64,000 bases of DNA from Eledone cirrhosa (lineage: Eukaryota), in NCBI GenBank assembly GCA_964016885.1, contig OZ024751.1:40796001-40860000 (forward strand), read 5' to 3'. Below are positions 49,171 through 50,254 of the stretch, in pieces (position 1 is the first letter of the stretch; the number at the start of each line of letters is the position of its first letter). The translations under genes and the position numbers were made by a program. Under the pieces are notes generated by a model. The model did no database searches, was not told the origin of the DNA, and saw only the letters and a list, made by a program, of their open reading frames with translations.

Positions 49171-49341
49171 ATATATATATATATATATATATATATATAT
49201 ATATATATATATGCAAAGTTTTATTTAAATTGTTGGGTTACAACGAGTAAATATTTATAACTGATATAAAAGCACTCAATAAGTATTTGGAGTATATTTA
49301 CGATATTAAATAAATGGAAACTATATTTATAAAACCATATT

Positions 49342-49407
49342 TATTTCATTATATATATTTCAGGGATATCATATTAAAAATATGGTATGCCTTCATCAGA
49401 CAAAATA
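49342..49407 (-). ncRNA. Type-I hammerhead ribozyme (mirror copy)
   Basis: Reverse complement of 49590-49655. Confidence 0.8.
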
Positions 49408-49589
49408 CAATATAAACAGTCTTATAAATAGATAGATTTGACATACCTTACAACTTCAACTTCCATTTAAAAAGTTGATTTGGTAGACTACCAAATCAAC
49501 TTTTGGTAGACTACCAAATCAACTTTTTAAATGGAAGTTGAAGTTGTAAGGTATGTCAAATCTATCTATTTATAAGACTGTTTATATTG

Positions 49590-49655
49590 TATTTTGTCTG
49601 ATGAAGGCATACCATATTTTTAATATGATATCCCTGAAATATATATAATGAAATA
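49590..49655 (+). ncRNA. Type-I hammerhead ribozyme, PLE-type with palindromic stem III
   Basis: Stem I UAUUUUGU / AUGAAAUA; CUGAUGA 49598-49604; stem II AGGcAUAcCAUAUU-uuu-AAUAUGaUAUcCCU; GAAA 49636-49639; stem III UAUAUA; predicted cut after AUA at 49647. Confidence 0.82.
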
Positions 49656-50254
49656 AATATGGTTTTATAAATATAGTTTCCATTTATTTAATATCGTATA
49701 TATATATATATATATATATATATATATATATATATATATATATATATATATATATATATATATATATATATATATATATATATATATATATATATATATA
49801 TATACATACATACACACACATATATATATATATATATATAAATACATACATACACATATATATATATATATATATATATACATACATACACATATATATA
49901 TATATATATATATATATATATATATATATATATATATATATATATATATATATATATATATATATATATATATATACATACATACACATATATATATATA
50001 TATGAAAAATATGGGGGAGAAGAATACTGCATGGTTGCACATGGATAACATGTTATAAAATGAGTCCCTCATCAGTGATTTGCCAACGATCATTGGTATT
50101 TCATCGCATTATATATATATATATATATATATATATATATATATATATATATATATATATATATATTTATATATATATATATGTAAAAGTTCTATTTAAA
50201 TTGTTGGGATACAACAAGCAAATATTTTTATAACTGATATAAAGCATTCAGAGA

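Follow-up and report, generated by a model that had tools for sequence, protein, structure and literature searches.

Head-to-head insertions of a Hydra-clade Penelope-like retrotransposon family in Eledone cirrhosa and their possible origin from two cDNAs

The inverted insertion and the family to which it belongs

The window analysed, a 64,000-nt stretch of Eledone cirrhosa contig OZ024751.1, contains two exact reverse complements of 188 bp each (49299–49486 and 49511–49698; 0 mismatches), separated by a 24-nt spacer at 49487–49510. The identical arms and the spacer sequence were thus found as first described, but the 400-bp palindrome was wrongly taken as the unit: the insertion spans 49213–49696, and its left arm carries an unmirrored tail of 88 nt that extends to 49213. 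It has no open reading frame (ORF), consists of two arms with the tail on the left arm only, and sits in (TA)n at both ends (left flank 49169–49212, right flank 49697–49804), which adjoins the family's ends in nearly all loci examined. The long arm (49213–49486, minus strand, 274 nt) represents the 3′ end of the element from a reverse transcription (RT) start, termed A, back to position +2 of the likely transcript, and is 99.3% identical to the 3′ end of L031. Its tail (49213–49300, minus strand) lies between start A and a second RT start, B, and continues into the ORF leader in long copies. The short arm (49510–49696, plus strand, 187 nt) runs from +1 (A49510) to start B. A 23-nt tandem duplication (49479–49524, plus strand) crosses the head-to-head junction and includes the spacer. 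Upstream of the ribozyme of the short arm, a putative splice donor (AAG/GTATGT; 49551–49556, plus strand) was noted from sequence only; introns in the 5′-UTR have been reported for Penelope and Chlamys-3 (PMC8557442).

Further repeats were present in the same window. Just left of the insertion, at 48991–49168, a unit of about 37 nt occurs three times, two direct and one inverted, with (TA)n between the copies. An older tail fragment of the same family, 87% identical and on the minus strand, lies at 50173–50250 and ends in (TA)n. Another palindrome, at 23535–23706, also lies next to (TA)n; it is extended on one side only and its centre is repetitive, and a hammerhead core was looked for in it and none was found. 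A 23-nt inverted pair with (TA)n inside and on both sides occupies 3228–3299, and a 99-nt tandem repeat with copies 98–99% identical (51742–52000) extends to the edge of the scanned region.

The sequence at 49213–49696 is almost certainly an insertion of a young Hydra-clade family of Penelope-like retrotransposons (PLEs). A search of the 3.0-Gb genome with its arm gave 913 candidate matches. Those that were scored are mostly 99–100% identical, and many of the matches form opposite pairs at most 4 kb apart with a reading frame between them. Near-full-length copies show the usual partial tandem, their 3′ end continuing into the ORF leader. The best frame, 733 aa long and found in L138, carries the motifs RWR (R for K) and SDKT, a CxCx5C linker (CNCRDRSKC), CDLC and CRH, and lacks CCHH. 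The endonuclease is C-terminal, with a conserved Y..Y.G..R..H..E..N at 612–710 and one Cys between strands; CxxC and CxH flank its E and N. A structure model of the protein (pLDDT 86.9) matched telomerase RT best (Z 18.4, rmsd 3.3, 291 residues aligned). At E ≤ 1e-10, 368 relatives were retrieved, the best named one being a hypothetical protein of Argonauta hians (39%). Pfam recognised RVT_1 in 3 of 46 aligned relatives and GIY-YIG in 4 of them (best E 0.0023). Neither Pfam on the family's own frames nor a profile search of solved-structure sequences returned a match, and the family was therefore identified by its motifs and fold.

RWK-like and DKT motifs, CxCx5C, CxxC/CxH around E/N, the lack of CCHH and (TA)n targeting are all described for the Hydra clade (PMC8557442), with which the family also shares a hammerhead near the 3′ end, partial tandems, an inverted 5′-truncated copy and a one-sided tail. 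It differs in its unit of about 3.9 kb, compared with generally less than 3 kb in the clade, owing to a long 3′ UTR, and in its tail of 88 nt rather than 30–40 (PMC8557442). The clade assignment is one of motifs and layout, the text for Hydra-1_Obim in the supplement of PMC8557442 having been compared by eye, and the family was not matched to a named consensus. Identity as a Naiad element was rejected in view of the C-terminal endonuclease and the hammerhead. A non-LTR retrozyme was rejected on the head-to-head arrangement of the arms, their continuity with an ORF-bearing family and the lack of head-to-tail non-coding monomers; a MITE or foldback DNA transposon, on the asymmetry of the A and B ends and the variation in arm lengths and junctions. 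The insertion itself is real but ordinary, and its layout, ribozyme and two RT starts have already been published.

The original prediction considered the sequence unrelated to a 58-kb element in the same window. This held for the DNA of the arms, with a local score of 23 that was reached by 71 of 500 shuffles, but not at the family level: the proteins are 57% identical over 466 aa, and judged by sequence the 58-kb element is a sister family. Its palindrome at 57775–58192 has the same design, with two fixed ends and twin hairpins, and the family shows a recurrent 5′ stop at an initiator-like site; a 40-nt short-end fragment of it lies at 43299–43338. A third, very abundant Hydra family (L043, L228–L259; 5,066 forward-strand pattern matches at the A end) has hairpins past both starts with one compensatory swap.

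Of the two explanations proposed for the identity of the arms, a recent event or homogenisation, the first is the one that stood, at least 25 other matches being 100% identical over 189 nt. Homogenisation was rejected: among 39 pairs, arms gathered separate rather than shared changes (58 arm-specific vs. 10 shared, with 29 of the 58 coming from two poorly aligned loci), so that it is not needed.

The hammerhead ribozyme

Each arm carries one minimal type I hammerhead, at 49583–49661 on the plus strand and as a mirror copy at 49336–49414 on the minus strand (core at 49399). The topology is as originally described: CUGAUGA at 49598–49604 is followed by a long stem II (49605–49635; 12 pairs with two internal mismatches), GAAA (49636–49639), the palindromic UAUAUA (49640–49645) and an AUA triplet. 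Cleavage is predicted after 49647, and stem I has 14 pairs. Rfam gave no hammerhead match at E ≤ 1; hits to its hairpin-type miRNA models, below the gathering score, were rejected as matches to the palindrome. The minimal type I hammerheads of metazoan PLEs likewise combine a long helix II with a tiny palindromic helix III, occur as dual copies on opposite strands 100–700 bp apart and fold poorly as monomers (PMC4209133). In contrast to the G10.1–C11.1 described there, stem II is here closed by A–U, over 12 pairs. A long stem II combined with a loop III that is palindromic also sets this hammerhead apart from the Hydra rows examined in File S2 of PMC8557442.

Across 232 arms, changes were frequent at N7 (126 arms), at one of the mismatches in stem II (83), in the loop (29) and at sites where pairing is kept, and other core positions varied in at most 2 arms. 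This distribution of changes implies selection on the ribozyme in source elements; as read from these sequences, the hammerhead is the normal pLTR ribozyme of the family, kept by such selection. In folding predictions, the active fold of the monomer lies 6 kcal/mol above the predicted minimum, with stem I formed in 3% and stem II in about 11%, in line with a dependence of PLE hammerheads on dimers or protein. Given this predicted misfolding, and since minimal PLE hammerheads did not cleave in vitro as single units (PMC4209133), absence of cleavage in the proposed assay of 49580–49665 would be a weak refutation. The hammerhead of this particular copy is probably inert, as read-through RNA would be expected to fold into a 188-bp hairpin.

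Two fixed 3′ ends and a sharp 5′ stop

Exact end patterns against (TA)n numbered at least 2,447 for the short (B) end and 856 for the long (A) end genome-wide; the excess of B ends may come from older subfamilies whose tails differ. Of 40 A-anchored loci, 31 had an opposite arm with its end at B, and the other 9 had no B partner within the 5–7.5 kb examined. This tally leaves out 4 of the first 44 listed A ends, namely L043–L045, each with a B partner, and one inside L149. In 3 of 30 near-full-length copies (L052, L060 and L063) site B is where the upstream pLTR begins, which would fit a long cDNA that ended at the priming site of the other cDNA.

Both RT starts consist of a TA-like 6-mer followed, 6–9 nt on, by a four-pair stem. 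The hairpin at 49273–49294 (minus strand; ACUC/GAGU) lies 7 nt past start B, and long copies have another such hairpin (GCUC/GAGC), 9 nt past start A. Within the family (4,214 nt) and its two sister families, the pattern, which was set after two families had been seen and loosened for the third, matched only the start sites, with compensatory pairs; its background was 8 matches in the 64-kb window on both strands. By eye, a GCUC/GAGC stem was also seen downstream of the hammerhead in the coral consensus Hydra-2_Amil, and no such stem was seen in the displayed leader of Hydra-1_Obim (both in the supplement of PMC8557442). For PAc, the Poseidon element of Anolis, cutting and extension of both DNA strands and two RT start sites have been described (PMC11167929). 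PAc shares with the present family two internal RT starts that bound a tail and a hammerhead upstream of them. However, the starts of PAc have no homology to the target and lie inside the ORF, whereas those described here are target-matching TA-like 6-mers before the ORF and, unlike those of PAc, each precede a copy of one hairpin. Inverted insertions are not treated for PAc in the relevant parts of PMC11167929.

At the other end, A49510 is the exact end point of 151 arms genome-wide; 853 arms continue past it, and a control position 14 nt upstream is the end point of 1. The site has the context TCACT, with TATAAC 23 nt upstream, and a TATA box with a TCACT initiator-like motif was described for the pLTR promoter of Pen2a_Av of Adineta vaga (PMC3846280). 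In 27 palindromes, across diverged subfamilies, both arms end at +1. A49510 is thus likely a transcription start, and cDNAs primed in the leader likely run off the 5′ end of the RNA after 187 or 275 nt. A search of the literature found no published account of such a pile-up at a start site.

Of the first 100 +1 ends listed, 33 have a G directly before +1, compared with an expected 13–22% (p between 2e-7 and 0.007 according to the baseline used), and in two palindromes the extra G is present on both arms. The present copy has it too (49509–49510, plus strand), the element's own base being C. These bases are suggestive of a reverse-transcribed cap, but many of them, including the one at this locus, could also be the last base of the partner arm or reflect microhomology.

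The same observations were weighed against a second reading, in which the pile-up would mark a pause of the RT or a break of the RNA just downstream of a long pyrimidine tract, with the rest of the model unaffected. A long CT-rich tract does lie upstream, and both the 853 arms that pass the site and the alternative explanation of many of the Gs by microhomology would fit a pause. The downstream pLTR carried by the same RNA should, however, also give rise to read-through. The single-base sharpness of the stop (151 vs. 1), its TATA/initiator-like context, its recurrence in diverged subfamilies with an equivalent in the 58-kb family, and the extra G on both arms of two palindromes all speak against a pause or break, which we consider unlikely, and we retain transcription start as the preferred reading of A49510.

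Joining of the arms and the origin of the inverted insertions

At the junction, 49479–49501 and 49502–49524 are exact direct duplicates of 23 nt in the assembly. The centre that is duplicated here is the commonest one, found in 15 of the 27 palindromes, and would be explained by two identical cDNA ends annealing through one to three bases; the double junction itself was not found in the 15 palindromes examined out of 27. In 32 hand-picked junctions of the family, the ends overlapped in 15, were blunt in 4, and were separated by short inserts in 3 and by long inserts (at least 10 nt) in 10; 9 of the 10 long inserts matched nearby sequence at p < 0.05. The spacer had been read as a record of repeated template switching. 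That it is templated was borne out, but one join and a single 23-nt slip at a TTT microhomology suffice to produce it. From its sequence, template switching in the spacer appears real but ordinary for a family with long inserts at 10 of 32 junctions.

Such inserts carry the sequence signature of synthesis-dependent end joining. Microhomology-mediated end joining (MMEJ) of the synthesis-dependent kind and templated insertion by polymerase theta use short microhomologies and leave inserts templated nearby, in either orientation and through repeated rounds (PMC5728401, PMC4912351). The ends joined here differ from those cases in being retroelement cDNAs, and the polymerase could be the element's own RT.

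We consider it probable that the inverted insertions arise from two separately primed cDNAs that both run to the 5′ end of the RNA and are joined head to head by MMEJ. The endonuclease would cut both strands of the (TA)n target; the two DNA ends would prime at different sites of the RNA leader, one at A and one at B, in both cases on the TA-like 6-mer before a hairpin. Both RTs would copy the RNA as far back as +1, perhaps including the cap, after which the two identical cDNA 3′ ends would anneal through 1–3 nt. At the present locus, synthesis would have slipped back 23 nt once at TTT, either during joining or in later replication, which would produce the spacer and the A at both centres.

Self-priming has been proposed for head-to-head Penelope palindromes (PMC3846280): one cDNA or an antisense template would snap back and be copied into the second arm, and the spacer would record repeated snap-backs. 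The A. vaga Penelopes of that study share with the present family inverted pLTRs, palindromic junctions, an optional tail and the TATA and TCACT motifs. A fold-back origin would also accommodate the spacer, which can fold on itself, the snap-back-like insert of L012, and the shared subfamily type of paired arms (36 of 39 pairs, compared with 19% expected), although these marks call for no more than one source for both arms. The geometry of the arms is harder to reconcile with it. In 11 of 31 insertions the upstream limit of the B arm lies more than 50 nt beyond that of the A arm, and in two (L134 and L135) the A and B arms have no sequence in common, so the second arm cannot have been copied from the first by fold-back. 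Centres of 0–1 nt, too tight for a hairpin loop, predominate (16 of the 27 palindromes with both arms ending at +1); continued snap-back predicts T at 49510, where A is present; and the exact stop of the second arm at site B is left unexplained. Self-priming, favoured for A. vaga in PMC3846280, is therefore improbable here, somewhat more so than the pause discussed above, and the arms argue for two cDNAs.

It is very improbable that errors of sequencing or assembly created the duplication or the palindrome. Long palindromes are error-prone, and no contig or read in 4 of the 16 listed runs, which may be from other individuals, covers 49505–49509. Nevertheless, the mirror symmetry does not extend into the flanks, the two ends coincide with the sites that are fixed in the family, locus-specific variants are present in 27 separate palindromes with both arms ending at +1, and head-to-head joints of other copies were seen in raw reads and in a short-read contig. 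The palindrome itself is genuine; the duplication is known from the assembly alone. Least probable of all is a non-autonomous element specialised to carry the ribozyme, of a retrozyme or MITE-like kind, moving as a palindromic unit: same-size palindromes recur and the ribozyme is conserved, but junction centres and subfamily variants differ from locus to locus, arms can be as short as 30 nt or exceed 3.5 kb and form a continuum with ORF-bearing copies, and there is no head-to-tail array.

Building on the two-cDNA origin, we tentatively propose, at somewhat less than even confidence, that the 400-bp palindromes are the product of a "double strong-stop": two RTs, each positioned by its own hairpin of the RNA leader, would prime the two ends of a broken (TA)n run on TA templates resembling that of telomerase and reach the capped 5′ end of the RNA, and their products would fuse through a cap-derived base. 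A literature search, with subscription papers mostly outside it, found no description of cap-terminated or two-cDNA palindromes of PLEs. The locus itself is ordinary retroelement debris. The added value of the analysis lies in the sharp 5′ stop and in the arm geometry that opposes self-priming.

The family bears on the open question of how PLEs, the closest relatives of telomerase, make inverted insertions. Its fixed starts, twin hairpins and sharp +1 stop define a 275-nt leader that is testable in an assay of the type used for PAc, and the family, being young and high-copy, offers test material. If the double strong-stop is correct, Penelope inversions would be traced to it instead of to self-priming, and transcription starts of PLEs would be readable from genomes alone.
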